Part shown: positions 3,228-39,566 of the stretch, piece after piece
Position numbering within the stretch: the stretch's first letter is position 1
How the letters are laid out: each line of letters opens with the position of its first letter
Assembly: GCA_040285855.1 (NCBI GenBank)
Contig: JAUFOQ010000005.1
Coordinates: 806,001-870,000, forward strand
DNA from: Eukaryota sp. GEM-RC1
Taxonomy: Eukaryota
DNA: 64,000 nt
Direction: 5' to 3'
Notes under the pieces: model-generated
Told to the model about the DNA's origin: nothing
Database searches by the model: none
The model's input: only the letters and a program-made list of their open reading frames with translations
Made by a program: the position numbers and the translations under genes

Positions 3228-3335
3228 GATATCTCTGAAAATGATGTCTTACTCTCAAGTTGAGAGTCTCAAAAGATATCTGCGAACTGTGTTCAAATTT
3301 GCTCAGACCTTTTTCAAATTCCATTTTCTGAGTTC
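3228..3335 (+). repeat. Dispersed repeat, inverted copy at 15728-15807
   Basis: gatatctctgaaaatgatgtcttact...tctgcgaactgtgttcaaatttg.tcagacc matches the reverse complement of 15728-15807. Confidence 0.8.
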
Positions 3336-4144
3336 AGTAGTAGCCAAGTGTTACTGTAACACTGTATCATTCGTTAATTGTTTCTGATGTTCAACATTGT
3401 TTTATTCTTTTCTAATATACAAATACTTCAGGAGTGTTCCAAATTTTATAATCACTTGTTAATTACACTTCCTAAATGGAATTGGTAATTAATTTGTCAT
3501 TGAAATCATCAATTAAATTGGAATCTTATCAGAAAATCAAAGATGCGATGAACAAATTGAGCTTCAGTTTCTAGAAAGTGTTGTCATCATTCGAATCCAG
3601 TCAAAAGAATCGTCAGTATTAGCTTCTTCAAGGCATGACGAAGAGAAGGAGCAGCACGGTGATGTTGGTGAGAGTCTTCGAATGAAAGTTTCCAAGGTCC
3701 AATCACCTGGAACGATCGCTAGTTGTTTGATAGAAGACAACAACCATTTGGTCATGAATGGTAATTACGGTAAACCGTGATTTAAATGCATTCACCTGAG
3801 ATTAATAATGGTTAGGGACATACCTGCTCATTGGGAACGTTGTGAAGAAGCATTTCAATTGGGAGGTTTGATCTAAATATTGTCAGAATATTTTGATATT
3901 TAGAAGCATTACTATATCTAGTACTAGTAAACTATCTACAAGTGTACTTAAATTTCATATCATAGTATATCTAGGCTTTTTACGAGATTGAATTTCATCA
4001 ACAATTATAACAAAGGAACGTTTGGAAAACGTGTTCTTGTCTATGTCCATTGATGTTAAATATTCACAGAGCACAGAGACCGCTAATTTGACGGCAAATG
4101 TGGTTTTGCCACGACCACGGTTTCCTGTGCAAAATAAAATTCAA

Positions 4145-4367
4145 AGTATCGTATGAATTATTCACATGGAATGTGACTCTGGTACCAGAGCACTTGCTGT
4201 AGATTAGAGTATATTTCAATAATTGATCCAAATTCTAGTTGTACTTGTGTATTAATTACTATCTGTATTTAAGATGTGGACAACTATTCGAGAACAAGCA
4301 AATATAGTACGACAATGGGTAGGAATTAAATTTCTATGTGCCAACAGTGACAAAATTGATTTAGGTA
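4145..4367 (+). repeat. Dispersed ~220 bp repeat, copy B
   Basis: Direct, diverged copy of 995-1207. Confidence 0.85.
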
Positions 4368-5214
4368 AAGTTCATAAACAGAAGTGTAAATTGGCTTAAT
4401 GGTTCTTCATTTAAATAGTAAACACTGATACTTCAATCAATTAGACGAAAATCCTTTCGAACGTGGGGGCAAATACCAGGTAAATTGTATAGTTGTTATT
4501 CAACATGTCTGTTTTGGATCTTTGCTGAATAAACAACTGCTTCCACTAACAAAAAGTCTCCAATGTATCGTATACTAATTGTTTAGAACAATAGATGAAT
4601 TGAATATATACAATGTTGCATGCTTTCAATTAGGTAAATTAGGAACATATAGCTCTTTGGACAAGTCCTTTTCAAAGATGCTGAAGACTTGAAAGATAAC
4701 GTCACAATTCTAACATCTATACGTTTAATTTTCGGTTCCCAAAAGTTAACCTCCGTACAATAATATAAATTTGTAAAAACTACTAAGACAAAATCCAAAC
4801 GACGTCATTCAAAAATGCATACAATGTGATGATTTGGATTTTGCAGACAGAAAAGTGAAAAAATGTTTTTGATGTGGAAATAAGCAGGAAAACAATCCAA
4901 GTTGTCAAGAAAATAAAAACAGTTTATTGATGGAGGGTACAAAAATACATAATATCATAATAAAGGCTCTGAAACACTACACACAGAAATTTGCTTGTCA
5001 ACAGTAGCACAGTTTTTATGCAACTTTGTGAAAATTGATTTGAAAAACTTGGGCATCGAACGGAACAAAGGAAAAATCAAAAAAAAATCAAACGGTTATG
5101 CCAAATTGAAAAGTTAAATCTCTTACTCTGAGACAATGTCAAGAAAATGTTTGAACACTCATTGAATCAGTGCACATTTTATCAAACTCAAATTCAACCT
5201 TGTACAGTTTAGTT

Positions 5215-5405: not shown

Positions 5406-5687
5406 ATTCTTAGTTCAATCTAGTTGTGTTAATAACAAAAGAAAAAAAAGAAGACAATGGGTGACCTTCCATATGTAAATCTGAAAAAAGCGCCATTTCA
5501 TTTCATGTTTTGATATCCCACTTTCTGCCCTTTTTATTCCTTTTTATTTCACAAAGAACATCAGTTCTTTAGACCAATTCCAAGAGAACATATTTTCTTG
5601 AGGCATTGTGTCTTGGCTTCCCCTAAACTTCTAGGAGCTTCTGCCATTCTTATTTCGCTTCTTTCATCAGCCCAACCTTATATATAA

Positions 5688-5735
5688 GGTCTTACTCAGC
5701 ATGGTGATATCAAAGCCAATCCTGGTCTCCCCAAA
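5688..5735 (+). other. Degenerate 2A-like (StopGo) peptide coding motif
   Basis: GLTQHGDIKANPGLPK; three single-nucleotide changes restore DLTQHGDIEANPGP. Confidence 0.6.
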
Positions 5736-6039
5736 CCTGATATTGTATTTTTCTTAGTAGATGTCGAGAATAAAACATATTGGTACAAATACCATAATCG
5801 AAAAACATTTAAAGCTGATTATGATACAGGAAAGCTTAGACATAAAAAGGTAAAATCTGAGACAGAATAAAAAACCTGGGCCAAGGAATAGATCAAAGAG
5901 GTTCACAATAATGAACTACCTACAGCAGAATATGAAGTCAATGCTCTAACACAAGACTTGCCTGATCTCGGCCACCTTTACAGACTTTCCAAATTGGAAA
6001 CATAGGATCCCTAACTGCAAAAAGATCGAATGAGTCAGC

Positions 6040-6720
6040 GTTTACGATGAGTTTGATGGAACGATTGACCTCTGCTATGAGAGACAATAACAGGTATACT
6101 CAGCTTAATCCACAATATCGAAAATTTTCTGAATTGTGGAATTTTTCTGATACATATCGATAACTTTCTAATGACAAAATTAGTACTATTGAACCGTATA
6201 ATGGTCACTTAACATTTGCTAGGAGACAATTTGTGAGTACTATTGGATCTCATCATTAGTCTTCTGCCGAAGTTTCAGGGAGTCTATTGAATAAGGCTGA
6301 ATGTAATGCCATTGTGGAACAAGTTACTAATTTTGTAAAAAATAACAGATCACATATGGAGCAATTATTGGATAGAAAAGTGACGGTGGCCGCTTTGACT
6401 CCTTACAGAGCACATTTACAGGAACTTTTTCTAGAGTTCTAGGAGAAGTATGGACGCTATTTTTCTGACCAGATTGAAATTTCAACTACTGATGCTTATC
6501 AGGGGAAGGAAGCTGATGTAGTCTTTATAAGCACTGTTAAAACCATGAAAAATACTCAACAAATTGCTAGTCTGGGATTTTTATCTGATTATCGCCGAAT
6601 GAACGTAATGTTAATAAGGGGGAGATTCAGTAATGTTGTTTTTGGTCACCAACAACTGTTATCAAGACATGGACAGGGACACAGAGCTTATGGAAGTAGC
6701 TAAGCAACGGCTGCAAACTG
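6040..6720 (+). pseudogene. Upf1/DNA2/NAM7-like SF1 helicase, C-terminal (AAA_12) half
   Basis: Manual translation: SLMERL, QLNPQYR, NKAECNAI, LTPYRAH, ISTTDAYQGKEADVVFIST, LGFLSDYRRMNVMLIRGR; several in-frame stops. Not in the ORF track. Confidence 0.85.
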
Positions 6721-6922
6721 CTCAAGACTCATCATTGCCAATTGAAGAGATAAGTTTCTTCTTCTTTGTCCACTTCTTTGTATACGAGTGCACCTTATAG
6801 AATCAATAACATATGAAGAACATGTCACTGTGCCAAGATATCACTGAAGACATCATCTATAAATAGTGTGAATTGATATTTGTATCGTTATTCAAAATTC
6901 TAATAATACTTCCAGAAAGAAA

Positions 6923-7249
6923 GTGATGAATTTTCTACTAAAATCAGTTAGTGAACATCCTCAATCCTTTAATAAATCTGCTTTTCAAATAAATTACTAT
7001 CTTGAAAGTGAAGGACCAAGTACATACAATGTAATTCCGATTGTTCGTCACATCACACCAGGTTTCTTTGAAATAGACACACACGGTCTTTGGGGAATAT
7101 TACGTTCTACTTTGTCAACACAACCAGTGAAAGCCAAGAAAACACTATCTGAGTGGAATACGATAGGAGAAACTCAGAAAAATCTCTCCTGAAGAACAAA
7201 ACATATTCTGGTCATATTTTTTCAACTTTAATCGTCCATTTATAAAGAA
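6923..7249 (+). pseudogene. Fanzor1 copy 1, N-terminal part (upstream of the MULE insertion)
   Basis: YNVIPIVRHITPGFFEIDTHGL and, after a frameshift, IFWSYFFNFNRPFIK. This joins in frame to KGYKFNNTIKTGRFSACV when the MULE plus one TSD is removed, matching the Fanzor1 P..iDT / W..F / F...I.TDG.S motifs. Confidence 0.75.
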
Positions 7250-9331
7250 GGGATTTATGCAGATTTCATCACTAATATACATTAATTGCATTTTTCATCT
7301 AATATTACTTTATTTTGCAATCATTGTTTCAACTCATAAAACCTATTTCGTTGGACAGTTTCTCCTGTCATGACCAACTTGGTCACAATTTCTACACTTA
7401 CGTTGTCGTGGTCTTGGTGCTGAACCATCTACTACTGTTGGTATCATACTGCTGGCACCTTGCTGCAACACAATCCACTCTGGGCAGTTTCTTCTGTCGT
7501 GCCCAATAATTCTACAATGACCACATCTACGTGGGGAGAGAGGCATTGCTTCCTGATTCTCTTCCGTTGCTGCTGCGTCAGGTTCTACTTCTTCACTGTC
7601 GCTACTCGCATCCTTCTCATCGAATCTCTTTTGATTAAAGCGTTTAGTACGTGAGTACTTGTCCTTACGTGAAATTGGCGGACGACCTGGCATTACTGTA
7701 TCTAAAGGAGGAAACACATCACTTTCTAGTTCTTCGATATTCCTTCTATAGTCGATTGGATAAAATTCGCCATCATACGTCTTCTTAAAATTAGTAACTA
7801 AATAATAGGGAGACACTAAAGATCTGGGGTGAATTCTAACACGTCTCGAAACTGACAATACGTGAATACATGGCACATCATGTTGTTTCCAGAATCCGCA
7901 ACTGCACGTTTTGTACTTCAGATCCACAGAAAACACAAATTCGTTTTCTCTCACGGAATACAAATTGTCGGAGAACGTGGTTACTTCTAAACTGCGAGCT
8001 CTCAATATCGACGGCAACAAATACTCTTCAACATCATCAACGAATTCTCCATGCATCTTCATTGATTCATCTTTTCTTCTTCTGAACAAATGAGTCATTG
8101 CTTCAAAGATACCGTTAACCATTGAAGTCACTGGCAGAGAGCGAACTGGAAGAAGCCATGCATTTAAGGATTCAATGATATTGGAGGTGAGTTGTCCATA
8201 TCTATTCCCTTCAAAGTGTACTGTCGACCAAGATTCTTTCGGAGCTGACTCTTCCAAATAAGTATAACCCACTGGGCACTGGATTTGAAGGAGCTGCCAA
8301 TAGCGGTCAAATTCGTTTAACGTACTCGCTCTTGCACATTTCCAAAACAATTTCATTGCTTTCTTTCCACCTCTGGACGAGAGATTGTCACTGAGATGTT
8401 TACAGCACACAGAGTGGTAGGTTTCTTCACCAAAAACTTCGACCAGCGTACGGGATATGGCTGGATTTCTGTCACTAATAAATACTGTTTTGTCGTTGAT
8501 TGCAAAATTGTCATTCAAATTCTCCAAAAAGCTTCTCCAATTTATTACATTTTCCGTTCGAGTAATTTCAAAAGCTATAGGAAAGAAATGTCCGTTGGCA
8601 TCAATGCCAGCAGCAGCCAACAATGTTCCCTTGTATTTGGACCTCAGATGAGTTCCATCTATCACGATAACAGGCCTTAAAAACTCAAATCCTTTCACAA
8701 GAGGTTGAAAAGTAAAGAAAAAGCGCTCAAATGTGCCATCAGGTGCAACATTCAGCTTAAAAGGAGAGTTGGGATTAGTGGAGTTGAGACTTTGGAAAAA
8801 GGGTTCCAGAAAGGTGTATGAGGTATCTGAAGAACCATAAAGTAGTTCGTTAGTGGCCTCTAGAGCTCGACAGGCTTTACTCGGACTTATATCAATAAAG
8901 TACTTGGTTTTCAGCTTCCTAGCAAATACAGATGGACTGGTAATCTTTCCACCTCTTACTTCTTCTGCCATTAAAATGGCACAGATTTGTTTAGGCAAGG
9001 TCGTAAAACATAAGGATTGGCAGGAAGCAATGTGATCGACAAACTTTCTTATTTCCCATTCGTGGGTGTCTGTGTCCTGAAAACAGTGGATGTAACAGGG
9101 ACAAGGTGTAGAGGAGCCACATCGTATATCCCAACGGTTCTGGTTTTTCTGAGTTATGTCGAAGCTTTTATCACTCGAAAGGAACCAAGAGTAAACATCA
9201 TGCTGCAAGTGTTGGATGTTTGTATAAGAATGACCTTGTTGAAGAGTTGTATTAGTTGTAGTCATTAGCAAAAGAGTATTGATGTTAAATGAATTGTTAT
9301 TTACTTATGTGATGTAAATTGACGATTTCCC
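7250..9331 (-). mobile_element. Intact-looking MULE/MuDR DNA transposon, 2082 bp
   Basis: Perfect 9-bp TSD TATAAAGAA (7241-7249, 9332-9340); termini GGGA...TCCC with imperfect ~28 bp TIRs; encloses an open transposase ORF. Confidence 0.92.
7343..9265 (-). CDS. MULE transposase with SWIM finger and two CCHC knuckles
   Basis: IDGTHL, FISDR, HSVCCKHL, SNIIESLN DDE motifs; CSCGFWKQHDVPCIH SWIM; CGHCRIIGHDRRNC and CRNCDQVGHDRRNC. First ATG at 9265. Confidence 0.95.
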   Translation of the reverse strand: MTTTNTTLQQGHSYTNIQHLQHDVYSWFLSSDKSFDITQKNQNRWDIRCGSSTPCPCYIHCFQDTDTHEWEIRKFVDHIASCQSLCFTTLPKQICAILMAEEVRGGKITSPSVFARKLKTKYFIDISPSKACRALEATNELLYGSSDTSYTFLEPFFQSLNSTNPNSPFKLNVAPDGTFERFFFTFQPLVKGFEFLRPVIVIDGTHLRSKYKGTLLAAAGIDANGHFFPIAFEITRTENVINWRSFLENLNDNFAINDKTVFISDRNPAISRTLVEVFGEETYHSVCCKHLSDNLSSRGGKKAMKLFWKCARASTLNEFDRYWQLLQIQCPVGYTYLEESAPKESWSTVHFEGNRYGQLTSNIIESLNAWLLPVRSLPVTSMVNGIFEAMTHLFRRRKDESMKMHGEFVDDVEEYLLPSILRARSLEVTTFSDNLYSVRENEFVFSVDLKYKTCSCGFWKQHDVPCIHVLSVSRRVRIHPRSLVSPYYLVTNFKKTYDGEFYPIDYRRNIEELESDVFPPLDTVMPGRPPISRKDKYSRTKRFNQKRFDEKDASSDSEEVEPDAAATEENQEAMPLSPRRCGHCRIIGHDRRNCPEWIVLQQGASSMIPTVVDGSAPRPRQRKCRNCDQVGHDRRNCPTK

Positions 9332-9340
9332 TATAAAGAA

Positions 9341-10316
9341 AGGTTATAAGTTTAACAATACCATTAAAACTGGTCGTTTCTCTGCTTGTGTTGAACTTAC
9401 TAGAGAGGACTGTGCGAGAATGTCATTTAAACCAGACAGTACAAAGTTCTCTAGTATAGAAGAATATGTTCAAGACTATGATGTTGAAGAGTTTTCATTG
9501 AAAACACAAGTGTTAATTGACCCTGGAAAAACAGATTTACTCTGTTTTTGTTCAGAGAAAGTATGAAGAAAAACCCGAGAAAGAAGAAACAAAGAATACG
9601 AGTGGCTAAGATTGACAGAGACAAAATGATCCAGATGGTCAAGGGTTCATCAAAAATTTAGAAGGGGAAAGAAAAAAGAATTCAGTCTCCAAGATGGAAA
9701 AACAGTTGAACAAGAAGAGTTAACATTATCCAAAGAAAATTCGAACTTCACTCTTTGTGACACATTCTATGACTATGTTGGTTCCAAACCTACAGTTATT
9801 GAATCAACATTTTATTACTACTGTTTGATGATATGGCGCATTCAAAAATGAAAAGATACGTCCATATTCAAAAAACAGAAAGTAAGTTGTTGAAGATCCG
9901 ACTGACAAAAGGATGGAATCAAAATGACTGTGTTTAGATGTTTGGTGACAATGGTAATAAGAGGCAGAACCTAAAACACCTCGAGTAGAGGTGTTGGTTA
10001 GAGAAACTTCTTTAAGAGAAATGATTACAATATTGTTCTTGTAGACGAGAGTTACACGGCTTCAAAGTGTCCTACTTGTTAGAGGGCAGTTAAAGTGCTC
10101 AAAGAAATCAGTAATCCAAAACCATGGAAAAGAGAGAAGAAACCTCTGGTAAAGTGTCACGCTTTGTTGAGATGCAAGTCCCAAGAATGTAGAGAAGAAT
10201 GTAATGGTAGCGCCAAGGGTTGGAATCGTAACAAGTTAGCATGTATCAACATCAAGACCATTGTAGAGCATCATTTGGAACGATGTCTGGAAGTGAGACC
10301 CAGTTATTTGGCATAA
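9341..10316 (+). pseudogene. Fanzor1 (eukaryotic TnpB) copy 1, RuvC/zinc-finger part
   Basis: LIDPGKTDLL (RuvC-I), KMKRYVHIQKTESKLL (bridge helix), MFGDNG, VDESYTASKCPTC (rearranged RuvC-II plus Zn finger), HALLRCKSQEC, WNRNKLACINI (RuvC-III), RPSYL; multiple stops and frameshifts. Confidence 0.9.
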
Positions 10317-10473
10317 TCATAGCCATTATTTACTACAGTGAATTGGTAGCATTTACATTGACAATTGCTAAAACGCACAACAACTTGTGTTGTTTTCCTC
10401 ATCAACTACAGCTTAGGTAGTTCTAAGTCAACAACAACTACACACCTATATCTGTCTTACATCCTGTGAGTTT

Positions 10474-10968
10474 ATGAATCCTACATTTCTTTTTGTGGGA
10501 CTAGAAGGTTCTGGTGTTAGAACTATAGCATCATCTTTCATTTCCTTATTCGGTTGTAACGTAACATCTACCTGTTTTGATGATTGTCCAGTGTATTCAG
10601 TGCGACATAAACCCTTGAACTTCTTTGTTGTCGTACCTGGAGGAGACATATCCAAACGACATCTCTGGCAACTTCATCTTCTTGATGGAGTCTCTGCTCT
10701 AATTTTTGTAGTGGATGCATCCAACACTGAAGCCATAGAAGATGCCAAGTGGGAGCTACACAATCTATTGACACCACCAAGTGATCTTAACGTCGTTATA
10801 ATAGCCAACAAACAAGACAAACCGAATGCTTTGAACCAAAGTCAAGTAAGCGATCTATTGGAGTTATCAACACTTTCTTTTATTAAAACACCCACAGTTC
10901 TGGAAACTGTTGGTATATCTGGATACAATATTTCACAGTTAATAGATATACTACAACTCAAACGCTAA
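10474..10968 (+). CDS. Divergent Arf-family small GTPase-like protein
   Basis: GLEGSGVRT (degenerate G1), ALIFVVDAS, ANKQD (G4); G3 DxxG replaced by VPGG. Confidence 0.8.
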   Translation: MNPTFLFVGLEGSGVRTIASSFISLFGCNVTSTCFDDCPVYSVRHKPLNFFVVVPGGDISKRHLWQLHLLDGVSALIFVVDASNTEAIEDAKWELHNLLTPPSDLNVVIIANKQDKPNALNQSQVSDLLELSTLSFIKTPTVLETVGISGYNISQLIDILQLKR

Positions 10969-11321
10969 GATGAAGCATCAGCTAGAGCTATCTCAGGATG
11001 TTGCTTATAATACATTCGTGCTTCATCGATGTCCTGTAATGAGAAAGTAGATGTTACCAACCCTTTTGAGTTCTTCATATTCCGAAGGATTGTTACGGAG
11101 AGTGAAGACTTTGTATAAAATACTGATTAATGAATATGTACCAAAGAGAACAATGTAGATAGGGAGAAACTGTGGTGAAAACAAGATGATGACCGAACCC
11201 ATTGGATGAAAAGGACTAGGTGGGGGTTCATTGTTGGCTGTTTGACTGTAACGTATGCTAACGACATCCAAATCGAAAGAATAAGGGACCACTTTAACAA
11301 GAATCGGGTGAAAGCTGTCAT
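10965..11321 (-). CDS. DPM3: Dolichol-phosphate mannosyltransferase subunit 3 (3 exons)
   Basis: Removing GT-AG introns 11170-11198 (29 nt) and 11034-11061 (28 nt) gives a ~99-aa two-TM protein ...WFLPIYIVLFGTYSLISILYKVFTLRNNPSEYEELKRDIDEARMYY..., the DPM3 pattern. Confidence 0.85.
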
Positions 11322-13439
11322 TGACGTAAGTGTAGAGGTTGTAGAGGAGTTTGTTATGAATGTTTTCAAATCTCTTACAGTTCTAGTTGTCTCAAAGAAT
11401 CCTGTCTCAACACTAAAAAGACCAACACAGGACTTACTTAGTTGCCCTGTTGTAGACAACTTACATAAGTTTTATATCATTAGACAACGATAACACCGAT
11501 CTCCATGAGTTTCTCGTTTACTAGTAGGTACGTTCTTCATTTGCGTAGGTCAAGTCTGACTTGAAGTATCTACCATTATCTTCACATTTGCATTTGCTCA
11601 TCCATGATTCTCTACTTGTTTTGTGTCTTTGTCATCGAGATTTTTCTCGATCAGGTTTCGTTTTCGTTCATAGACTTCAACATTGGACAATAATATTGTA
11701 AGGAATTCTTCTGATGTGTGTTGGATTATTTCCTAAGTCCTTGTTGTCTTAAAGGATGTTTGTCTTGGTGTTTTTCTGTCAAACCTACTGTAATCAATGT
11801 TGGCATTCTGTTACTAAATTTGTGTACAGCTTTAAACAGCAGGTCCTTGACCTAAAGAGTATCAATTGTTGTTGACGAGTACAGTATTTTCTTCGGTTGT
11901 AAAATGTTGATCTTTAGTAATGAATGAATTTTCCGAATATTAAAGAAATTTAAAAAAAATCTTTTGTCTCCATGTTTTACTTTGAGACATTGTGATTGAT
12001 TTTCTTTTTATCTAATATGTCTAGCGAAATGCTCTTCATTGTCTTTGTTTTATTATACCATTTAAGAAATTCATCTTCCTGCCGAAATGTCTACTGAAAT
12101 GTCTCTAATTTAGTAGTTTTGTTGTTTTTCTAAGTGTTTACGTGAGTACTGTTGGACTTATGTTATTGATTATATCAAACAGACATCCAGTATTTGGAAA
12201 GAAACCTTAGCGTAACGAACCACAAGGAGACAAGAGGGGAAAATAAGGTCTACATACATTTTCCCAGTAACATCATCACCACGAACACTGTATCTTCGTC
12301 GTGGTGAAGATGCGAGAAACTATGGCTGATCAATACATCCGTCAAAGACAGAGACACTAAAGAGCGAGGGGCGAATTTCTCTAAGATGGTCTAGGATTAA
12401 ATAAAGTGAAAGAAAAAAGTATTTTAATCAGAAGTCTTAAGACAACAACAGTAGTTAAGATTGATTGGATCATGGTCGATCTTGTTGTTGTTGACAACAA
12501 CTTCTTCTTAATTGATTACAGAGTACTGCTGGATTCTCATCCTTAACGATAACATTTTCTTTAATAACAAACCTACTAGACCAACTAGAAGAAAAAAGGA
12601 ACTAACAGAAACAAGGTTGTTACCTTTATTTGATCAGGAAGGGAATGAAAGGACATATAATACAATGGAAGCCTTGGTAACATTGTTGTCATTACTGACA
12701 GACAAGAGTATAAGTACATGTACACGTACCACATCAAAGTACCGGATGTGTGGTATCCTTAAGGAACATCAAACAAGCTAAGGTATGTCGAAACGTTAAT
12801 AGCAGGGGTTTGCTTTCCTTGACTGCCCCCTTTCACATGGGATGACCGTCCTCGAATGCCTGAGGTATCAGGACTTACAACGGAACTTGATGTAGCACTA
12901 ACTGAGCTAGACTCAAAAGAGCTGCGGTTAGTTGAGTCTTCACTGGAAGAGCTATGGTTAACATGGTTTCGCCTTTTTACCATTGGACAATAATTATTGA
13001 TACCTTTAGGTACTAAGGGGAAAAGGAACAATGTTTATAAAAAGAATTAAGGGATAATTTCGGTAATACGAAATTGAAGGGATTGATTCTCGTCATCTTC
13101 TTGCTACTAACGTTAATCGGTTAGTTTGTGCAAGTTTAGCCATTTCTAATTTAATGATTAGTCTGAGTGAGACTAATTATGAATATTCTTCATTAGTCTT
13201 GAAATTTTCCCCTACTGTTATTGGCAATGTAATTGTATGGTATCATTTTTAAAGCTTCAAAATTGAAAATGTAACACTATTATGTGTGTCGCTCTTATAC
13301 TGATACTTAATATAAAGTACTTACAGTTCAAAGTAAACTGTAAGTACTATATGGTGCCACAAACGAGATTTAACACATGGGTATACAGATCATACATAAA
13401 GGAGGTTATTTCGAACAATAAATTATACATAGTAATTCA

Positions 13440-14180
13440 GAAATGAAACAAGTTAAATTCGCCACATCAACACGAGAATTAATTTCCTGTACAACTTCGA
13501 ATAAATGGAACTCAAATACTTGGGAACACTTCTATAAAGAACAATCATAATTCGATTAATCCCAAACAACTATTAAAAAAACCTTGCCATTAGAATGGTA
13601 TAACAAACTTAAATCGGGAAAAAATGTAAACCAGCTGGACCAATATTACCAAAAATTGATATTGCAAATGGAACAAATGAAAAATTAGAGTATGTATTTT
13701 CATTAAGCTTCTTCAAAGCATCTGCATAATTAGAACACTTAGCCTGTTCAGCCTTTTCCAGCTGACCGTTAGAATGATTCAAAATAGAGTTTTGGTCTAC
13801 TTTTGCAAATGGGTCAACTGTAGTAAAATCAACCACAACTTGAAATGAATCCAGGAAAGGAGCATTTAAGTCAATGTGCCCAGAAAAATTTGTTTCCGTC
13901 GCTAAAATGTTCCAGCAGAGGATCAACTTTACAACTTTAATTATAGGATTTAATTATTTTCATAAGTAACATCACGAACAGCATTATGTAGAACAGATCG
14001 ACGTTGCATTTTTTTTGTATCTAACAATATATCGAAAAGAGGCTGTAGAACTGTTATCGGAATCACAAATTGAATTTATTTGCAACCCAGGGAATAATCC
14101 CAGTCGAAGTCGCGTATTTTGCTTCCAAAAATCATTGTGCAAACGTAAATCAAGGACATGTTAATACTCTTTGTTATACC
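13440..14180 (-). mobile_element. CRE-like non-LTR retrotransposon 3' relic (restriction-like endonuclease region)
   Basis: RLRLGLFP, VLHNAVRDV, VVDFTTVDP, AEQAK..Y, FVPFAISIFGNIG, SRVDV; homologous to 46860-49330. Confidence 0.75.
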
Positions 14181-15727
14181 TGCTTCCATCAATGATATTT
14201 ATGATTAGACGTCTGTTAAATCCTGCATTACGTCAACAAAATACACAATTTTTTGAAAATGTCGATTGAATTAACCAGAACACAAATTATTCAAACAATT
14301 TCATCAATCAGAGAAATATATACAGCTCATTTTGCACTGAGCCAGTACATATTGCCAAAGAAGCTGCGGAGAATACCAGTAACGGGCAGAAGTAGCGTAC
14401 CAGTTTGGTCCCAATTTATCTGGTGTTGGAGCAAGGATCACTCGCCCTTTGGCTCTACTTCAATGCAGAAAGACATTGGAGCTTTCTTGATAACCAATGG
14501 GACAAGTGTAGAATGAGAATGATAATATCAATATCTTGTTGAGCGCTCAATTCAATTTTCCCACATTAACAAGGATCCAAAGATGATGACGTTTCATAAA
14601 CTCACAAACTTTTTGTATCTCAATAAGGAAGATACGTCCAAAATGAATGAAACAAATGACGAATCAAAAGGACGTCTTCATGACAAATTTCACCACTTAT
14701 CGCCTATCGATTGCATTGTTGAAAGACCTCAAGAAGTGGTGAACTATTGCTTCAAAGATATTGTAATAGCATTGAAGTTGTTTTTATTGTTCCAATTAAA
14801 TAAAATCGTTCGTCCCACTTTTATAACACATAACACTACAACAAAATATATTGTAAAACATTTATCTTGCAAATAAGAAATGGAAAACAGAGCAGGATTA
14901 TTTTAGTGAACTATCTTTCCCTGTTTTTCAGTAACTTTTCATGGCTCTCGAAAATTTCAATTCAAAGTTTTACACTACTACTCCCCAAAAGTTTATCAAG
15001 AAACCCCTAAGAGAAACAATGAAGTGTACTCCGCATTGGAGACTGACACTGATACCTTAAGATCACTATGTATGTTCGGTTTTGATCTGCCACACTCTTT
15101 TGATACTACTGTGATTGATGAGCTGCATTTGTCCATCAGTGCTATTGTGCATGAAGTTTTTTCACATTCTGTATCATTATGCAGTGATTTTGAGTCAAGT
15201 GTGTCGGACACGTGTCACTAATTCCATCATCAGCTTGTGCTCTCACGATACATATATTTGCATGCTTTCTATCATTTCACAAAAACCTTCAAAGACAACC
15301 GCTGTGAAATTTTGCTTTCAACAACCCAAGGCTAACGTTACCTCACTCGATCATCAAAATGTAACATTTGAACTAATTCATGATCCACAGGTTAGAAAAA
15401 ACCTTGGTCTTTGTCGAACTTTTGTCAACATCAAAAATGCTTAAGAACTTTGTGTTTCTCTAAGTGAGAACTCACCGGTGCTAGTAACTCATAAGTATTT
15501 CAAATTTTCTAACAAATTCCAAATTACTTCTTTTCTTAAATCAAAATCAAATACACCTGACTTCATTTATTTTCTAAGTCAGATTTGACTGAAATCATTA
15601 AAATCTTCACTTTCAAATTTCCATTTGCTATCAGAAAAATTAATCAATGTTGGAAGTTACTTCCAACATACTTAAAAAACGAACCGGTGTTAAATAAACT
15701 CCTAGCTACCAATGAACAGAGAATATA

Positions 15728-15807
15728 GAACTCAGAAAAGGTCTGAACAAATTTGAACACAGTTCGCAGACATCTTTAGAAAGTAAGACATCATTTTCAG
15801 AGATATC
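15728..15807 (-). repeat. Inverted copy of the 3228-3335 repeat
   Basis: Direct sequence comparison. Confidence 0.8.
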
Positions 15808-16546
15808 CCTATTTCAACACCGTCACATGCTAAGGAAAGAATACAAGAGAAGTGGTTACTGATTGAGTGGATTTGTTCAACCGAAATATAATTCTAGAAA
15901 ACTAGAAGTGTGTTACAAGAGAGAAGCATGACAACATGGTGAAGATCTTAGATCCGTTTAGACTATTGATTCGATAGTATTAAAGTCATCAACAATAAGC
16001 ATAGTGAAATTTCACGAACATCAAAGGTATTTAGTTAGCTGTCGTCGCTCTGCTTGTTTTTCCCTGTTATTCTCTTTACAGCAACTTCATTGTTTCATCT
16101 TTACTGGTGCATTGTCATCACTTCTGGTGTTGTACAAAATGCTTCTCGTTATAACTGTTTTTGAGGTAGTTCGTTTGATAATTTGTTTAAATAGCCTTTA
16201 TATAGTTGTTGTTTTCTTGTTGGGTGTTTATCTTCGCACATCAATCCCTTTTCTGTTCTCCAGAAATAACTAAGAAAGTGCAAGTCTCTAATTCCACTTT
16301 CCAGTCGGACAGCATCGTGTCTTCGACAACTCTAGCTTGGAAACAACTTAAGGAGTAGAAGATACTTAATCTAACATTTTTGATTCATCAAAAGCCATCA
16401 TCTATCTAATTCTTAAATTTTGGTTTTAAATTTTTAATATATTTTTCTGTTGCAAATAAACTCTATCTCTTATTTTAATAAAAGAAAGTGTAATTAAATT
16501 CCCTTTTATTGACATTCCCTCTCATTCCTGGCATACTGTCAAAATC

Positions 16547-16594
16547 GACCTCACACTGAACGACGACATCGAACCTAATCCAGGTGCTCCCAAA
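16547..16594 (+). other. Degenerate 2A-like (StopGo) peptide coding motif
   Basis: DLTLNDDIEPNPGAPK; two single-nucleotide changes restore DLTLNGDIEPNPGP. Confidence 0.65.
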
Positions 16595-17859
16595 CATTTG
16601 AAAGAAAAAAAGATAAAATTCCACAATGTCCCAGGAAATCATACCTGTGTTAATTTTGGAAATCAAAAAGCTACTTTTGGTTTCAGTGGAAATAGCCACT
16701 AACTTTCAGAGAGACATATAACGGCATTGATAAATCCAGATTTGCAAATAAGAAGGAACGTCATCAAGCTGTCGATCGGTAATGGAAATTCTTTTAAAAT
16801 ATGAGTTTACAATTGATCTGAAAAATCCTGATTTGGAAGATTTTATTGAGAAGTTTAAAAGATCAACTCCAAATGATCACGATTCTCTTTCCAACCAATA
16901 TTCCATTGTAGGAACACGAGATCCATTAGTTAGAATAGACAGATAGGTTTAACGAAAGGTTGTTTCCTTTTGGTCCGAAGTAACACCTGATATCTTACCT
17001 GAAAGTATGAAAATCGAGTTAAATTCATTATTTAAATCAAATACCAACAATAATGCCAATTCATCTTTTGTTTTTGGTCAAAACTTTTTCAGAAAGAGAT
17101 CTACTCAAACTCGAAGCTCAAGAGATAAAAAGACCACAATCAGTAGTTTTTTCATTCCTGAAATGTTTACGTAATTGAATGATTACAATCAGTACAGAAA
17201 TGATACATGTAAAACACAAATTGATGAAGTCAAAATACCTGAGGAAAAATAAATTCCTAAATCCTGTGCTTCCACTAGATACTTCCGCCGAAGACTGGAT
17301 TAACCTTATTCTTGATGAAGTAACAGCTACTTGCTGCATTGGTTTGAAACATCTAAACAAACAAGATTTCTTGAGGTGTTATTCTTTACAACCATCTGTT
17401 GAACATTTACTGGGATTTACGGCCAATGTTTTAATTATTCTTGCTGATCGAGTAACAACTCCAGGCCGAAACAACATGTAATGTATGAAGTTGAAGTTGA
17501 TCAAAATTTTAAATTTATTTTAGCATCGTTCATCCTTGTAAACATGTTGGTGCTTCTAATTGGATCAAATGATGACCTAAAGAATGAAAAACGCAATCTT
17601 GACGTTACCATTGTCGACAAATTCCATCCATTGAAGAAGACAACTCCTTGGTCAAAAATGTCTGTATATACAGAAGATCCAATTTGTCAATTACAGTAAT
17701 GTTTGCAGTAAAAATTGGACCAGACAGGCACTTTTGGTGCTAGATTTCTGACATGGTAGATTTTGAAATACTATTACGTGTTCGACATCAGTTAGAGATT
17801 GTACCACGTGAATCAATGACAGAACTTTTTTAAAAAAATGACGAAAAATTCGGACCACT

Positions 17860-18115
17860 TTGAATCTTTGAACACTTCGCTAAGGCAAGCAGTCGTGCAA
17901 TCAAATTAGATCGCTAAATGTAACTGGACCTGGTCTCCACTTTAATCATGGTGTATCTGGTGCAGGGAAAACCATGGTTATTGTTAAATTAATCATGTCC
18001 TTTTTGGATGATCGCCGCAAAGTACAAGGTGCTGCTCCTTCTAACAATGCCGTTGACGTAATTTTATCAAAACTATCAACTGAAGAATCAGTTGATAAGG
18101 AAATTACCTAGAGTA
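17860..18115 (+). pseudogene. Upf1-like SF1 helicase, N-terminal (AAA_11) fragment
   Basis: LNTSLRQAV (Q-motif region), HGVSGAGKT (Walker A, 17947-17973), AAPSNNAVD (motif Ia, 18031-18057). Confidence 0.85.
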
Positions 18116-18118
18116 ACT

Positions 18119-19053
18119 AAACTTACTAGAGAGGACTGTGTGAAAATGTCATTTAAACCAGATAGTGTAAAGTTCTTTAGTAGAGAAGAAAATGTTCAAG
18201 GCTATGATGTTGAAGAGTTTTCCTTGAAAACAAAAGTGTTTATTGACCCTGGAAAAACAGATTTACTCTGTTTTTGTTCAGAGAAAAGTAAATAGGCATT
18301 TTCTGAAGAAAAAGCCAAGAAAGAAGAGCCAAAGAATATGAGTGGCTAAGATTGACAGAGACAGAATGGTCCAGATGGTCAAAGGTTCATCAAAAGTTTA
18401 TAAGAGGAAAGAAAAAAGAATTCATTCTCCAAGATGGAAAAACAGTTGGACCAACATTATCCAAAGGAAATTCGAAATCCACTTTTTACGAAACCCTGTA
18501 TGTAGGTTCCAAACTTACAGTTATTGAATCAACATTTGATTACTACTGTTTGATGATATAGTGCATTCAAAAATGCAAAGACATGTCCATATTCAAAAAC
18601 AGAAAGTAAGTTGTTGAAAAATATGACTGAAAGAGGATGGAATCAAAATGACTGTGTATTGATGTTTGGTAACAATGGTAAGAAGAGACAGATCCTAAAA
18701 CACCTCCGATCAAGTAGAGGTGTGGGGTGGAGAAACTTCTTTAAGAGAAATGGTTTTAACATTGTTCTTGTCGATGAGAGTTACGCGTCTTCAAAGTGTC
18801 CTACTTGTTGGAGGCCAGTTAAAGTGTTTAAAGACATCAGTAATCCAAAACCATGGAAAGAGGGAAGAAACTTCTGGTAAAGTGACACGGTTTGTTGAGG
18901 AGATGCAAGTCCCAAGAATGTAGAGAAGAATGTAACGGTAGCGTCAAGATTTGGAATCGTAACAAGTTAGCATGTATCAACATCAAGACCTAAGCATTGT
19001 TGAGCATCATTTGGAGCGGTGTCTAGAAGTGAGATGCCGTTATTTATCACAGT
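18119..19053 (+). pseudogene. Fanzor1 copy 2, RuvC/zinc-finger part
   Basis: FIDPGKTDLL, MFGNNG, VDESYASSKCPTC, WNRNKLACINI; colinear at nucleotide level with 9395-10316; frameshifts and stops. Confidence 0.9.
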
Positions 19054-19078
19054 GATAGCATTTCCTACAGTGAAACTC

Positions 19079-22490: not shown

Positions 22491-23972
22491 AACATTCTAA
22501 AAAAACATATTGATTCTACTTTTTAAGACTATAATTACAGTTTTGGCGAAGATAGCGACAATGTGTAAGTATCTTCGCTTCTACTGACATGACCGTCGGT
22601 GTTAAACAATTGTTTTCTATAGTATACGTTTGTTTTTCTATACACATACTTTCTGTCAACGTTGTCCTTATTGGTAACAATAATTATTGGCCTATGTCCA
22701 TACCAGATACTTACACTAGAAAGTCAGCTTCTATTGGTTATCCAAGCTTTTTGATTAACAAAAGAAAGTAAATCTCGTTCCTTTTCTAATGCTTGCTTTG
22801 AGCAACAACAGTCACTCACGAAAATGAAAATTATTTTACTTTCGTACAAAAGTTGAAAGAAGTCTTTAGAAGTCAACTGGTGTAAGACCCTTAGGATCTA
22901 CATAGACTGATAGCAACCCTGGTTCTTTGGAGTCATTCATTGAACCCACTTCTGATTCAGTGTCACCCTTGTTAGTTAATAGTTTGTGAAATAATAAAGA
23001 TCGTGTAGATCCTTCAGTTCCTCTGTCAAGAGGTTGAAGAGAGTATTAGGCAACTTCCTATCAACACTGCGCCTGGTACTTACAATCGTTGAACAATAAA
23101 CGTAAGTTGTAACACAATGTTTCTGTAAGTACCGAATGGCTCCCTACTAGTCATCAGTATAGTCATTTACCTGCGGCGACAAGAGTTCTTGATAGTTTGT
23201 CAACTTCACCTCAAGATGTTGATTCCTTCTCTGGAATTAGAAAACTCAATAGGTTCGGTTTCTCTGGCACCTTTTCGCTTAGCTAGTTTCCTTAAACTAC
23301 ATCACTGGATGTGTGGAAAAGCCTGTCGTCGCTTTAAATCGCTCTTGGAGCATTTTAGATGGCCGTTTAGTACAGTAATTTCGGATTTTGTCATTGTTGA
23401 ATATTGAACTTCTGGTTTGTATAATGTGCTGATATTAGCACTTTCTATTTAGAAAAACACTATCATTCAACAGTGTGACAGAATCTCCACTAGACGTCGT
23501 TGTCAAGGACGTCTTCCTAACAGACGAGAATCATAAACTAATGCCATATACAGTTTATCCACTGAATAACAGTATAGTTCAAAATAGAAATTAGTAGGGC
23601 TATGAAGATAAATGCATTCCCTGTATTAAATCCAACAACAACAGTGTAACTCACCAAAAACATAAACAATAATCAATTTATCAAATATTTAAAAAAAATT
23701 CAATAGAAGACTTCACCCAAGAAGAGTATCGAGAGTAATTAAGAAATCTATCTGGATTGACTCAGAACTAGATTCCTCAAAAAATCAATTCTTGCACCGA
23801 TCACAATGATGAACATTTCGTTCAACATCAAGCAGCAGCAGGAACCAAAGAAAGTCTGTAAAGAAAATCCATAGGCAGTAGATAACAGAAGGTTAACAGC
23901 AGAAGAACCATCATTCAGTGTCAATCAGACACCATTATGTACAAAATCCAACCAAAAGTCAACTCCCAAAAG

Positions 23973-24719
23973 TCATAACTCTACAGGAACCTCCCTCAAT
24001 AAAGAAATGGCACTTTCTGATACTTCACAACAATAACACAGCACCTGAACTCCCGCATCACGTGCCTTAACCACTGCAGCAGTAAAGTCTGGGTCAATCA
24101 CGGTATTTGTAGAGAAAGACTCAACATCATTTCTTTGTGGAACAAACACAACATAGGCATCATGACCACTCTTAACCACTTCAATGAGCTCTAACACATG
24201 TTTAGTACCTCTTTTAGTAGGAGCATCAGGGAACAGAGCCTTGCCATTGATGCAGAGAGTGACTGACTTGACTTCTACATATGTCTTTCTATTGGTTAGC
24301 TTGTCTGTAATTTCAATATCAAATCGACTATTTCCAAACACCACTTCTCTTTTGACGGTGATACTGTTCTTCTCAAATGAAGGAATGACTCCTTGTAGAA
24401 AGGCTTCGTACATGAGATGGTTGGGAATCAATGTATCAATGCTGATCAAGGTGTCGTTGAGATAGACTTTGACCAAATCAAAGAGGGTTTTTCTTGTTTT
24501 GGAAGGAGGGAAGCGTCTGAGGATGACGGTAGCTCCTTCTTGTAGCAACTCTGTCATTCTTCCGGTGCTTTTGACATGGGCTACAACTTGTTCAGATTCA
24601 TTTATGAAACATTCAGCAATGAATCTGTTTCTTCGTCTTAGAAAGGAGCCCAAGAGTAGTTCTCCTGGCGTGAATATCGTAATTGATGAGAGACGGGACG
24701 TTAAGGAAGGTTGTGTCAT
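23973..24719 (-). CDS. sfsA: SfsA-family PD-(D/E)XK DNA/RNA nuclease (sugar fermentation stimulation protein-like)
   Basis: FLRRRNRF, AHVKSTGRMTEL, SRFDI, YVEVKSVTL, ALFPDAPTKRGTKH, DPDF; first ATG at 24719. Confidence 0.93.
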   Translation of the reverse strand: MTQPSLTSRLSSITIFTPGELLLGSFLRRRNRFIAECFINESEQVVAHVKSTGRMTELLQEGATVILRRFPPSKTRKTLFDLVKVYLNDTLISIDTLIPNHLMYEAFLQGVIPSFEKNSITVKREVVFGNSRFDIEITDKLTNRKTYVEVKSVTLCINGKALFPDAPTKRGTKHVLELIEVVKSGHDAYVVFVPQRNDVESFSTNTVIDPDFTAAVVKARDAGVQVLCYCCEVSESAISLLREVPVEL

Positions 24720-25353
24720 GGTGGTATTAAGATATGGCGCAGTAGAAGTAGTAGAAGTACACAAAAGGAGGATATTAGTAACAAGACCGAACAATAGTAG
24801 ACAATGATCTTCTTCACAATGAACTTCCGATTGTAGAAGAATCCTCTCTCAACGTCTCAATCCCTACATGGATTTGTTGTGAAGCAAAAGCCTTGAAATC
24901 AGCATCGCTGAAGTTTGACTAATCTTCTCAAGTTCTACTTCTTTGTTGTCTCTAGCAACGTCCGAACACTTTCGCTTTGAGGGACTTTGCATTGGCCAAT
25001 TCTTGGATGTCCGTGTTATTTCTATTCGTGAGGTTCTTCTCTCTGGATTGATGTCCTTAGATTGTGCACATCACCTATGTTTTATAGTTGTATGTATCCA
25101 TTTGTAACGTTCACATACATGTACATCTATTTTGATCCATAAACAGCTTTTAGGAGATGATAAGGAATCTCATAATGTCTATCGCCAAATAATAGGTTAA
25201 TTTAGATTTAATACATTAACCATGTGTTCTTCTTTTGCAAAAAGTGTCAGATGTTACTACTTGTAGTTGTTACTGACAACAAATATAAAAAGAATTCTTG
25301 TCAATTCTCGTTTTAAAAAATTCAATTTCTTTAGCTTTCTCAAACCCTCTATA

Positions 25354-35405: not shown

Positions 35406-36202
35406 TATTTGAAAAACTTGTGATTTATGTATGTGATTGCCAACACTGGTTACAACGCCAGATCTGGTTTATTTAAAGAGCTTTAATATTATATTGGACT
35501 AATGATTTTAGAACAAAAATTGTTTATAGATGAGAATGACAACAATAAATATCCCGATAAAATCTACACAACACTAGACACAATAATTTCTTGATCTAGA
35601 AAACCACAGTTATTAAATCAATTAGTGTTAATTGATGCAATGTATTGGTGCTTACATGTGACTTTTGAAAAAGATTGTTTATAGTTGAAGCTCTCAAAGT
35701 TGTGGTGTTCGACTCGAGTCATGAGTAGTATACAAAGAAGTATGAAGTAGTATGAAGAGGCTCAGAGTAGGACTGACTTGTCTCAACAGAGAATATGTTA
35801 GAATGAAGATGAGAAGACAGTCAAACGGTTGGTAAAGCAGAATCATCTATTTAGATTTAGAAAGCAGAATTAGACTGCTTGTGGTGTAGTGATAACAACT
35901 AAAAGAGTCTTCTCGAGAAGTCGTTTAAGTAGGATAACAAACATGTAATAGAATCAGACAGAGATTCGGATGGAGAGGGAAGGAGATGAACAAGTACATG
36001 ACATGACATAGTTTGAGGCCCTTGTGATCCAGGAGATTACAACAGGTTAAGTTATGATACATTCATGGCCTTGCAAATGTATGATAGTACTCCTGAAAAG
36101 TACAACATTGCTGTCAGAAGGCATTTTGGAAGCCCGGCAGATCATAGTTCTTGACATCGAGGAGGATAAAGCTAGCTAGGAAAGGACACAAAGGCCTAAC
36201 AG

Positions 36203-36796
36203 ATGATTGAGGTGCTGCTGCTCCTGGCTGTTGCTGGAATCATCGTGTCTCCTCCCTTCATGTTTGATTTCCTTCGAAGTAAGAAAAAGTTCCGAGGCCT
36301 CCTTGTTGGTCTTGATGGTGCTGGAAAAACGACGCTTATTTATTTGCTGAAAGAAGGTGATATGTTTGACACCATTCCCACAACTGGATTCAATACGGAA
36401 GAAATTGCCTTTGGAAAAAACACGCTTGTCACATTCTGTGATGTGGGAGGTCAGGATTCGCAAAGATCTTTATGGAGCCACCACTTCGATAAGATTTCTG
36501 TTCTAGCCTTCGTCATTGATGGATCTAAACCAGAAAGGTTTGAAGAAGCAAAACAGGAGTTACTTCGCTTAGATCAAGAATCTCAGATTGATGATGATGT
36601 ACTTTGTGTCATTCTCTCTACCAAAATGGATCTCCCTGATTATGTTCCTTCTGAGGAGGTGAGTGTGGCTTTAGGTGTTTCTGACTTAAAGAGAGATTGG
36701 AGTGTTCTTCAAGTATCTGGAACCGACAAAAAACACGTCAAGGAGCTTGTTCGTTGGTTATCCGATCAATTGAGTACGCGAAAGCCATTGTTGTAA
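36203..36796 (+). CDS. Arf-family GTPase with N-terminal hydrophobic anchor
   Basis: GLDGAGKTT, PTTGFN, DVGGQ, TKMD; N-terminus MIEVLLLLAVAGIIV. Confidence 0.9.
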   Translation: MIEVLLLLAVAGIIVSPPFMFDFLRSKKKFRGLLVGLDGAGKTTLIYLLKEGDMFDTIPTTGFNTEEIAFGKNTLVTFCDVGGQDSQRSLWSHHFDKISVLAFVIDGSKPERFEEAKQELLRLDQESQIDDDVLCVILSTKMDLPDYVPSEEVSVALGVSDLKRDWSVLQVSGTDKKHVKELVRWLSDQLSTRKPLL

Positions 36797-37323
36797 GTAT
36801 TGTATCTATCTTTTTTTGTGTCTGCCAGTGTCGTAATACTTTCTCTTTTTAAATTTTGTCTAGAATAGCTCATCTTATATCTGGAAACTACACAATCAAG
36901 GGGGAAGGTCTAGGACAGAATCACAATCTCAAAAACTCGTGAATTGTCAGCTGTCCACAGTAGCAGTATTGACAAATGACGCAAGGTGTTTCACAAGTTT
37001 CAACCTGACATAACACCCCACGTTACTGTTTGCGTTGCGTCACGTCGACGTGCGTTACAACAAGACTCACTGAATCATATAAATTGATATCATCAAATGA
37101 GTGTTTAACACCATAGTTTTGTTTTTAAACTGAGATAATGATTGGAAGTCTTCATATCAAGAGGAAAGATAATCATATCATGTTACAATCTACACATATC
37201 CAATACAAAGCACAATATCTACAAATCAATGATGGGAAGCTTGTAAAAGCTTGTACAATTGAAGCCTGTATTGGTCCACAAAAGTCCACATCAAATTGAT
37301 CCTCTTTTCTCATTCCTTCCTAC

Positions 37324-38688: not shown

Positions 38689-39566
38689 ATCCACTCCATA
38701 TTTGTAACTGTAGCTTTTTGTTAAATTACATACTGGAAATTTAGATATCATTCCTTTGGCTGAGGAACTGTTAAGAGTGGCATTGTTTCAAAGCACATGG
38801 AGGGCTCTACCACAACCGTCACTTTTCTGAGAAGTAATAGATTCTGATTAGGTTTTGTTGGTTTGTTATCAAGTACAATGGACATGGACTTTCAAATGGA
38901 ATGCTGATATTATCCCAATCAAAAGAGTTTAAATGAGTTCATTCAGAAAGTTCATATGAACAAAGTTGAAAAGCAGAACACCATTTGCAGAACATTGTGT
39001 GGACAATATATTAGTATTGAGATCTAAAACAAAGAAATGTCTCTGAATATCCAGTAAAACGTATCCAAATGTGATTTGATATCTTCAATAAAATACCACT
39101 CATCTTAAACTACCATTGTGGAGACCATGGATGTGTTTTCTTTTCATGTGACTGTATTAAAAGACAACTGGTCAAATACAATGTAAGTGTTTCACCCGGA
39201 CCATCAATCAATTTCAATCAGCAAGCGAGAAGATCAAAAAATAAGACCAAATCGCAATGAAAAAGTGAATTACCTGACGAATAAGACGGCAAGATGCAAG
39301 ATGGAACTTCCACGTAAGCCAATGAGCTAGAATTGAGTCCTCTTATTGAGGAAGTCTAAAGAACAAGACAAGAACAAATACAAAAGAGCGATACTGTCAA
39401 CTAAACAGATCAAGCCAACCGTCAACCAAACTGTTGCTTACCAAACCAGATACACTCTCAGAAGATCTTAAACGACTGCATAATAGACTCTGAAGCCATT
39501 AGTCAGGAGAAGTCATTGGAGATTGACTCTGTCACTTTCCCTCACGTTTTTCTACGTTCTTCTTAC

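Follow-up and report, generated by a model that had tools for sequence, protein, structure and literature searches.

We analyzed a 64-kb stretch of the genome of Eukaryota sp. GEM-RC1 (assembly GCA_040285855.1, contig JAUFOQ010000005.1, positions 806,001 to 870,000; hereafter the window), in which two loci carry the remains of a Fanzor1 RNA-guided nuclease gene behind pieces of a Upf1-like helicase and 2A-like motifs. The DNA evidence comes from this window, a eukaryotic and AT-rich sequence whose genes include Arf-like, DPM3, SfsA, and kinase-like ones, and the comparative evidence comes from proteins. The original prediction placed the two loci about 11 kb apart with the same plus-strand order of 2A-like motif, Upf1-like helicase, and Fanzor1, and all of these parts were found at both loci. 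The intact relatives of the Fanzor copies form an exonuclease-Fanzor polyprotein family, which, judging by the sequences, appears to be a better-supported novelty than the helicase link. The features of the two loci are listed below in window coordinates, with P numbers denoting related proteins.

5691..5732, plus strand: 2A-like motif 1, a degenerate NPG-L-P, 9/12 identical to the 2A of P0174 and P0177
5733..6000, plus strand: about 90 codons between 2A-like motif 1 and helicase motif III, no significant match
6002..6703, plus strand: C-terminal half of a Upf1-like superfamily 1B (SF1B) helicase (motif III remnant, IV, V, VI) with three internal stops; AAA_12, E 8e-17
6704..6895, plus strand: spacer between helicase and Fanzor copy 1, closed in the helicase frame and unlike the Fanzor N-terminus
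6896..7249, plus strand: central portion of Fanzor1 copy 1 (roughly residues 503-620 of P0183), ending in the left 9-bp target duplication (7241-7249)
7250..9331, minus strand: nested Mutator-like element (MULE) with an intact transposase open reading frame (ORF) at 7343-9304 and GGG...CCC ends
9332..10316, plus strand: Fanzor1 copy 1, RuvC and zinc-finger part with catalytic D, E, and N; stops and frameshifts
10317..10342, plus strand: common right end of copy 1, CAGTG-AA, likely the element terminus
14658..14894, plus strand: exonuclease fragment (motif III, YCxxD) that continues into the first strand of Fanzor (E 1e-16, E 4e-23)
16499..16594, plus strand: 2A-like motif 2 with leader, NPG-A-P, E 0.011 to the leader and 2A of P0195
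16595..17870, plus strand: decayed coding-like stretch, no family match
17871..18116, plus strand: N-terminal part of a Upf1-like helicase (Q motif, Walker A, Ia); AAA_11, E 2.6e-7; IGHMBP2, E 0.002
18119..19049, plus strand: Fanzor1 copy 2, starting near residue 636 of P0183, with catalytic D, E, and N; stops and frameshifts
19050..19074, plus strand: common right end of copy 2, CAGTG-AA

The closest solved relatives and the fold of the window family are those of Fanzor1. When stops were replaced by X, the best solved matches of the copy 1 Fanzor were PpFz1 (E 6e-20) and SpuFz1 (E 4e-13), and the copy 2 Fanzor ORF matched the same two proteins (E 1e-8 and E 5e-7, respectively). Both copies carry the RuvC-I aspartate and the RuvC-II glutamate, and the C4 zinc finger (TNB) that characterizes Fanzor1 was found (PF07282, E 0.003). 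Copy 1 had been described as retaining most of Fanzor, which proved too generous: about 63% is kept, and residues ~250-500 of P0183 are gone. Copy 2 lacks everything before residue ~636 of P0183. Both copies are dead through stops and frameshifts.

An intact MULE transposase ORF of 653 codons (7343-9304, minus strand; PF10551, E 2e-15) splits copy 1, and the statement of the original prediction that no transposase is visible has to be withdrawn. The MULE is flanked by 9-bp direct repeats at 7241 and 9332, inside the copy 1 Fanzor, and its ends show weak terminal inverted similarity (alignment score 54 versus a shuffle maximum of 46). As the Fanzor match stops at one 9-bp repeat and resumes at the other, the MULE is the younger insertion. 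We rejected it as mover or carrier of the Fanzor gene, since it interrupts Fanzor, has a 9-bp duplication of its own, and does not enclose Fanzor within its ends. With a length of about 2.1 kb, DDE motifs, SWIM, and two zinc knuckles, the MULE itself looks autonomous.

The two Fanzor copies align over 977 nt (9394-10342 versus 18120-19074) with 85.5% identity, and this 3' part is the only same-orientation stretch common to both loci. The homology stops 26 nt past the copy 1 Fanzor stop and at the same point in copy 2, with unrelated flanks on both sides. The 271 aligned codons contain six stop codons, all private to one copy (4 and 2). Unrelated flanks, one homology end, and private stops fit two insertions better than one duplication. 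We therefore disfavor a single segmental duplication, which the original prediction had kept as a case against itself. In its specific form, this explanation has one local duplication copying a chance, already dead helicase-Fanzor juxtaposition. The copies lie 8.7 kb apart, have one frameshift in common, and show no significant selection, all of which would agree with it, but the lack of common flanking DNA on either side, the end of homology shortly past the Fanzor stop, and the absence of any common stop codon make it quite improbable. The common frameshift, a one-base shortfall in the same A-run, also loses weight, because at other loci two gene models, P0162 and P0159, read this A-run site in a shifted frame, so that the lesion would be recurrent or family-wide. 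The shortfall could reflect a mutational hotspot, a lesion present throughout the family, or an error in the assembly; the relatives' assemblies are described as long-read based in PMC11316075.

The relatives were found in an HMMER scan of 1.84 billion representative proteins with the copy 1 Fanzor, which gave 425 matches at an E-value of 0.001, the best 150 of 425 being examined. The closest matches were skoliomonad proteins (E 2.5e-98 to 4e-24), and the first ten places are taken by NCBI proteins that carry the labels Eukaryota sp. TZLM1-RC, TZLM3-RCL, and GEM-RC1. These labels correspond to Skoliomonas species, and we take TZLM1-RC to be S. litria. The strain names GEMRC and RCL occur in PMC11316075. 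The organism behind the window is therefore probably a skoliomonad. A tree of 107 sequences was built from the matches of at least 300 residues among the best 150 of 425, eight family members, and the window copy; in it, 15 skoliomonad proteins grouped with the window copy with a support of 1.0. Cluster look-ups and one profile search enlarged the set to 70 proteins, at least 15 of them members of one 18-member cluster. The relatives form several near-identical clusters on many contigs in the three genomes, as a mobile family would. All are automated gene models, in which neighbours can get merged (P0009, P0012, and probably P0154).

A Pfam scan of all 70 clade proteins matched the PolB exonuclease (PF03104) in 20 and Ulp1 (PF02902) in three. 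It found AAA_11 or AAA_12 in none and no reverse transcriptase, HUH domain, APE domain, or transposase at a credible score; two weak DDE_Tnp_IS1 matches (E 0.02-0.03) coincide with the RuvC region. In 16/70 proteins, a single chain contains both exonuclease motif III and the RuvC-II/zinc-finger region, and motif III is present in all 18 relatives with at least 330 residues before a mid-Fanzor marker. Motifs I, II, and III are intact in six of the eight proteins examined, the other two lacking motif I in their gene models. The best solved match of the exonuclease is Pol delta (E 3e-6), and each of the three genomes has the join of exonuclease and Fanzor. In the longest members (P0184, P0202, and P0195), a leader is followed by 2A, one or two Ulp1 domains, a basic linker, the exonuclease, and Fanzor1, and in P0177 a Ulp1-like tail precedes the 2A. 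Seven of the 70 relatives have a 2A motif resembling those in the window, six of them full and the seventh degenerate. An AlphaFold model of P0183 had a mean per-residue confidence (pLDDT) of 75.9 and, by target, a template modeling score of 0.83 versus SpuFz1 over its length. On domain content, then, the defining Fanzor partner of the intact relatives is a PolB-type exonuclease (plus Ulp1), not a helicase.

One relative, P0154 (RCL1_001071), has a divergent DEAH-box helicase at residues 139-680 ahead of exonuclease-Fanzor in a predicted single chain, which reflects either the merging of neighbours in the gene model or another type of helicase upstream of the Fanzor family. It was set aside as support for the window helicase, as it belongs to another superfamily, occurs in 1/70 proteins, and stands in gene models that merge neighbours.

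The active site of the clade differs from that of most other sequences in the tree. RuvC-III has an asparagine in 16/16 clade rows of the tree versus an aspartate in 81/91 other rows, whereas RuvC-I keeps its aspartate in 14/16 and RuvC-II has its glutamate just before the zinc finger in 16/16. The 'RD' of the Bao and Jurka motif at RuvC-III is accordingly absent, with RN in 16/16 clade rows. According to PMC11423790, GtFz1 is a DNA-cutting enzyme with this same D-E-N triad, and the substitution D606N raised the activity of SpuFz1. By analogy, RN would be a variant triad that does not exclude the clade from Fanzor1, and the skoliomonad clade is predicted to be nuclease-active. A 'dead Fanzor' that acts as a binder only, as the D-to-N change might suggest, was rejected as the default, the asparagine being clade-wide and active in GtFz1. 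Since the clade is closest in sequence to PpFz1 and SpuFz1 and not to GtFz1, its asparagine may have arisen independently.

Pfam identifies the helicase pieces at both loci, the one at copy 1 through AAA_12 (6443-6700, E 8e-17) and the one at copy 2 through AAA_11 (17884-18108, E 2.6e-7). As predicted, copy 1 retains the C-terminal motifs, with QYR at 6104, TPY at 6398, V at 6485, and VI at 6596, and copy 2 retains the Q motif, Walker A (17950), and motif Ia (18034) before a deletion junction into Fanzor at ~18117-18120. Together, AAA_11 and AAA_12 with motifs I, Ia, IV, V, and VI define a Upf1-like SF1B helicase, split over two loci. The sole indication of a subfamily is a weak match of the N-terminal piece to IGHMBP2 (E 0.002). 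Motifs Ia, IV, TPY, V, and VI do not recur elsewhere in the window. Motifs I to Ia are absent from 5733..6000, which points to a deletion there, and the last part of 16595..17870 may, from its position, be the helicase 1B/stalk region. The original prediction had seen complementary copies of a longer common parent; the Fanzor parts are closely alike and end at one right end, but the helicase halves do not overlap, so we infer their common origin. Five metagenome loci retrieved with the N-terminal part were dismissed as chance matches, with little in common beyond an 8-residue seed, no helicase continuation, and no Fanzor match.

We found nothing to support a functional pairing of effector and helicase, and the fusion left open by the original prediction is unsupported both in the window and in the 70 relatives. 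A single fused or 2A-linked effector that unwinds and cuts would fit the same strand and order of helicase and Fanzor at both loci and the distance of only ~190 nt, in the same frame, between them in copy 1. This spacer, however, contains five in-frame stops and matches nothing, including the Fanzor N-terminus. Given these stops and the ~250 missing Fanzor residues, the closeness in copy 1 is a deletion product, with no visible fusion. The exonuclease, moreover, sits directly ahead of Fanzor in 18/18 long relatives and in the window fragment. We consider a fused effector very improbable.

The motifs at 5706 and 16565 are the only sites in the six frames of the window with at least 5/7 letters of the 2A consensus, compared with a mean of 0.225 such sites in 40 shuffles. 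They fall short of the full D(V/I)ExNPG-P, ending in NPGL and NPGA and never in NPGP. The DNA around the two motifs scored 32 in similarity, equal to the shuffle maximum of 32, and the sequences downstream are unrelated; the two sites are thus not orthologous at the DNA level. Of the proposal of 2A peptides at both loci, what stands is that two such sites, and only two, exist in the window; neither the NPGP ending nor orthology does. A very weak 2A-like word at 22944-23003 on the minus strand (E 0.72 to P0177) was not significant. A D-x-E strand after the first motif, considered as exonuclease motif I, was discarded, because it was recognized by eye only and scored no better than shuffles.

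The fragment at 14658-14894, overlooked by the original prediction, joins the end of an exonuclease to the start of Fanzor and, by its similarity to the relatives, ties the window to the exonuclease-Fanzor design. No exonuclease or Fanzor-start fragment was found upstream of copy 1. ORF-like stretches at 14220-14655 and 14910-15444 (plus strand) flank the fragment and have no match in Pfam, PHROGs, or the relatives. An old interspersed repeat with ~70% identity and mixed orientations occurs at 3228-3417, 15629-15991, and 51773-51939, and its copy at 15629-15991 sits between the exonuclease fragment and the second 2A-like motif.

The position of this fragment would also fit a nested cassette, in which an independent element with 2A and helicase entered the N-terminal half of a gene for exonuclease-Fanzor; the helicase would then have broken Fanzor and never have worked with it. 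Such nesting would have happened a single time, with later copying of the composite, or on two occasions through a preference for the target. In locus 2, the succession of exonuclease-Fanzor start, 2A, helicase, and Fanzor end is collinear with one split gene, and the pieces absent at both loci include P0183 residues ~275-500. The helicase is found in 0/70 relatives, and nesting does occur in the window, in the form of the MULE inside copy 1. A nested cassette explains the two loci almost as well as an upstream helicase gene does. However, copy 1 has no corresponding exonuclease or Fanzor start upstream, no ends or target duplication were found for the cassette, its 2A motifs look like the ones in the Fanzor family, and about as many deletions are needed as with an upstream gene. 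We regard nesting as rather unlikely, though worth serious consideration.

On balance we lean towards the view that the copies are decayed, internally deleted Fanzor1 genes and that the Upf1-like helicase was probably a separate, 2A-led gene upstream in the same element, not a fusion partner. Domains, order, clade, D-E-N triad, nested MULE, and common right end are direct observations. In favor of an upstream gene, each helicase piece comes after a 2A like those of the family and lies ahead of Fanzor on the same strand. Several points weigh against it. The helicase-Fanzor link is seen twice in the window and has no support outside it, and no relative shows the helicase (0/70, in gene models selected for containing Fanzor); because a protein test is blind to a separate upstream gene, the latter argues against fusion and not against linkage. 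The exonuclease-Fanzor fragment lies upstream of the second 2A-like motif and helicase piece and must then be a third, tandem copy. The unrelated 2A sites and downstream sequences call for extra deletions or two variants. The shared A-run shortfall could mean a common broken ancestor. The nonsynonymous-to-synonymous ratio pN/pS was 0.47 versus 0.71 for a spectrum-matched null (P 0.058), a borderline value that only hints at selection; the raw dN/dS of 0.44 (Fisher P 0.002) was dropped as a sign of selection after it fell to this value on mutation-spectrum correction. The 3' ends of the copies fold no better than shuffles (z -0.2 to -1.3), and Rfam gave no match in window positions 1-25000. The exonuclease part of the P0183 model is of low confidence (pLDDT mostly <60). 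Finally, no left end, target duplication, or carrier transposase was found near the copies.

An active parent would have derived an omega RNA from its 3' end together with the adjoining flank, and this RNA would guide Fanzor to cut element-free sites, thereby keeping or spreading the element. A homing model of this kind has been put forward for other Fanzors (PMC13565253). Skipping at the 2A would drop the leader and, in one subfamily, also an upstream protease, with the exonuclease staying on the nuclease. The exonuclease would most likely resect the 3' ends of the Fanzor cut, guide trimming being the alternative, and Ulp1 would likely take SUMO off host or element proteins. The helicase would be an accessory not needed for cutting, and each copy would have lost the stretch from helicase to Fanzor by its own deletion.

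A bolder proposal is an undescribed class of skoliomonad element with 2A-processed genes for an RNA-guided cut-and-shred machine, in effect a eukaryotic, Cas3-like processive destroyer based on Fanzor. If true, Fanzor1 would open the target, the 5'-3' Upf1-like helicase would load at the cut end and displace the other strand, and the fused 3'-5' exonuclease would degrade it. We think this improbable.

The evidence from sequence comparison supports a mobile, 2A-using Fanzor1 element. Of the mobile or virus-like element originally proposed, mobility agrees with the multi-copy relatives on many contigs, whereas no viral gene was seen: Pfam and PHROGs scans found no capsid, packaging ATPase, polymerase, or integrase of a Polinton-like or virus-like element. 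Relatives of the window pieces were likewise absent from the viral contigs, metagenome contigs, and phages searched. Word-indexed protein searches gave zero matches for the helicase C-half or a Fanzor ORF, a weak blank because the Fanzor ORF search also missed the known close relative P0003, and the leads of an Atlas search were all below 0.9. No Helitron HUH Rep-helicase turned up when 1-6 kb, 11-17.9 kb, and 21.4-24 kb were compared with Pfam in six frames, nor among the 70 relatives. The CAGTG right end matches the CACTG-type terminus rule of CACTA elements. Together with Ulp1, which is found in CACTA and MULE elements, this end weakly suggests the CACTA/EnSpm type, and a CACTA/EnSpm-type DDE transposase encoded elsewhere is our guess for the mover, a doubtful one. 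No exact left partner of the CAGTG end lies upstream of either copy, and no Tnp2-type DDE transposase was found in the scanned regions or the 70 relatives, though it could sit outside the regions covered.

The solved Fanzor1 proteins SpuFz1 (PDB 8gkh), PpFz1 (9cf0), and GtFz1 (9cer) resemble the window family in the RuvC glutamate beside the zinc finger, the C4 zinc finger, and the fold, and GtFz1 also has the D-E-N triad of the skoliomonad clade (PMC11423790). These proteins stand alone, whereas the skoliomonad relatives add an N-terminal Pol-delta-like exonuclease and often Ulp1 and 2A. Fanzor1 is known in Helitron, Mariner, IS4-like, Sola, as well as MuDR transposons (PMC3627910) and in Harbinger, Crypton, hAT, EnSpm, and piggyBac elements (PMC13565253). 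As in the window family, Fanzor lies at the 3' end of a multi-copy element and the homology ends just past its stop; 2A, Ulp1, and exonuclease were not found in the available parts of these two papers. Helitrons carry a RepHel-type helicase, whereas the window helicase is of the AAA_11/AAA_12 type and no HUH domain was found. Plant CACTA and MULE transposons carry Ulp1 (PMC2528002) and in this are like the skoliomonad family, but they have a Tnp2 or MULE transposase, which the family's proteins lack, and no left inverted repeat was found in the window. The non-LTR retrotransposons Crack, L2, CR1, Ingi, and L1Tc use 2A (10.64898/2026.06.17.732966). As in the skoliomonad family, their 2A lies near the start of the ORF, in some cases with an OTU or DUB domain, of protease type, behind it; the 70 relatives, in contrast, have no reverse transcriptase or APE, and their C-terminal enzyme is Fanzor1.

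We found no description of an exonuclease-Fanzor1 architecture in titles and the beginnings of abstracts; supplements and Repbase, which lie outside this scope, may list such proteins. In the available text, 'helicase' has zero occurrences in PMC10711439, PMC10312701, PMC10432273, and PMC13565253, 'exonuclease' in PMC10432273 and PMC13565253, and 'Fanzor' in PMC11316075 and 10.64898/2026.06.17.732966. The literature covered, again in part, further included PMC6338049, PMC10288648, PMC11071296, PMC12338488, and PMC12846837.

Elsewhere in the window, an intact SfsA gene lies among eukaryotic genes at 23973-24848 on the minus strand (PF03749, E 4e-45; PF17746). SfsA is a mainly prokaryotic family, and lateral transfer is possible. 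Three related decayed fragments (13486-14148, minus; 41186-41290, plus; 47227-47893, plus) have no Pfam match, and by their motifs they look like the C-terminal end of a non-LTR retrotransposon of the restriction-like-endonuclease type. Two decayed copies (869-1243 and 3974-4403), with cores 85% alike, represent a gene on the minus strand that contains words similar to Walker A and Walker B, outside the Fanzor element as far as seen. Three Arf-like genes (10417-10968, 36200-36796, and 57915-58472) and a transporter-like tandem pair (37305-40933, 88% identity) are host gene-family expansions.

The solid novelty is the family of 2A, Ulp1, exonuclease, and Fanzor1; the helicase partnership is plausible but stands on two dead loci. 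The Fanzors studied so far are stand-alone nucleases, whereas this clade naturally joins Fanzor1 to a proofreading-type exonuclease behind 2A and SUMO-protease domains. It adds a second, clade-wide case of the D-E-N triad as well as 2A recoding in an element that bears Fanzor. Should the helicase prove to be part of this element, its carrier would be a type of transposon not yet named. Engineers have added exonucleases to Cas nucleases to change the outcome of the cut, and the intact relatives P0183, P0202, and P0174 would show how an end-processing enzyme alters the outcome of an RNA-guided cut.

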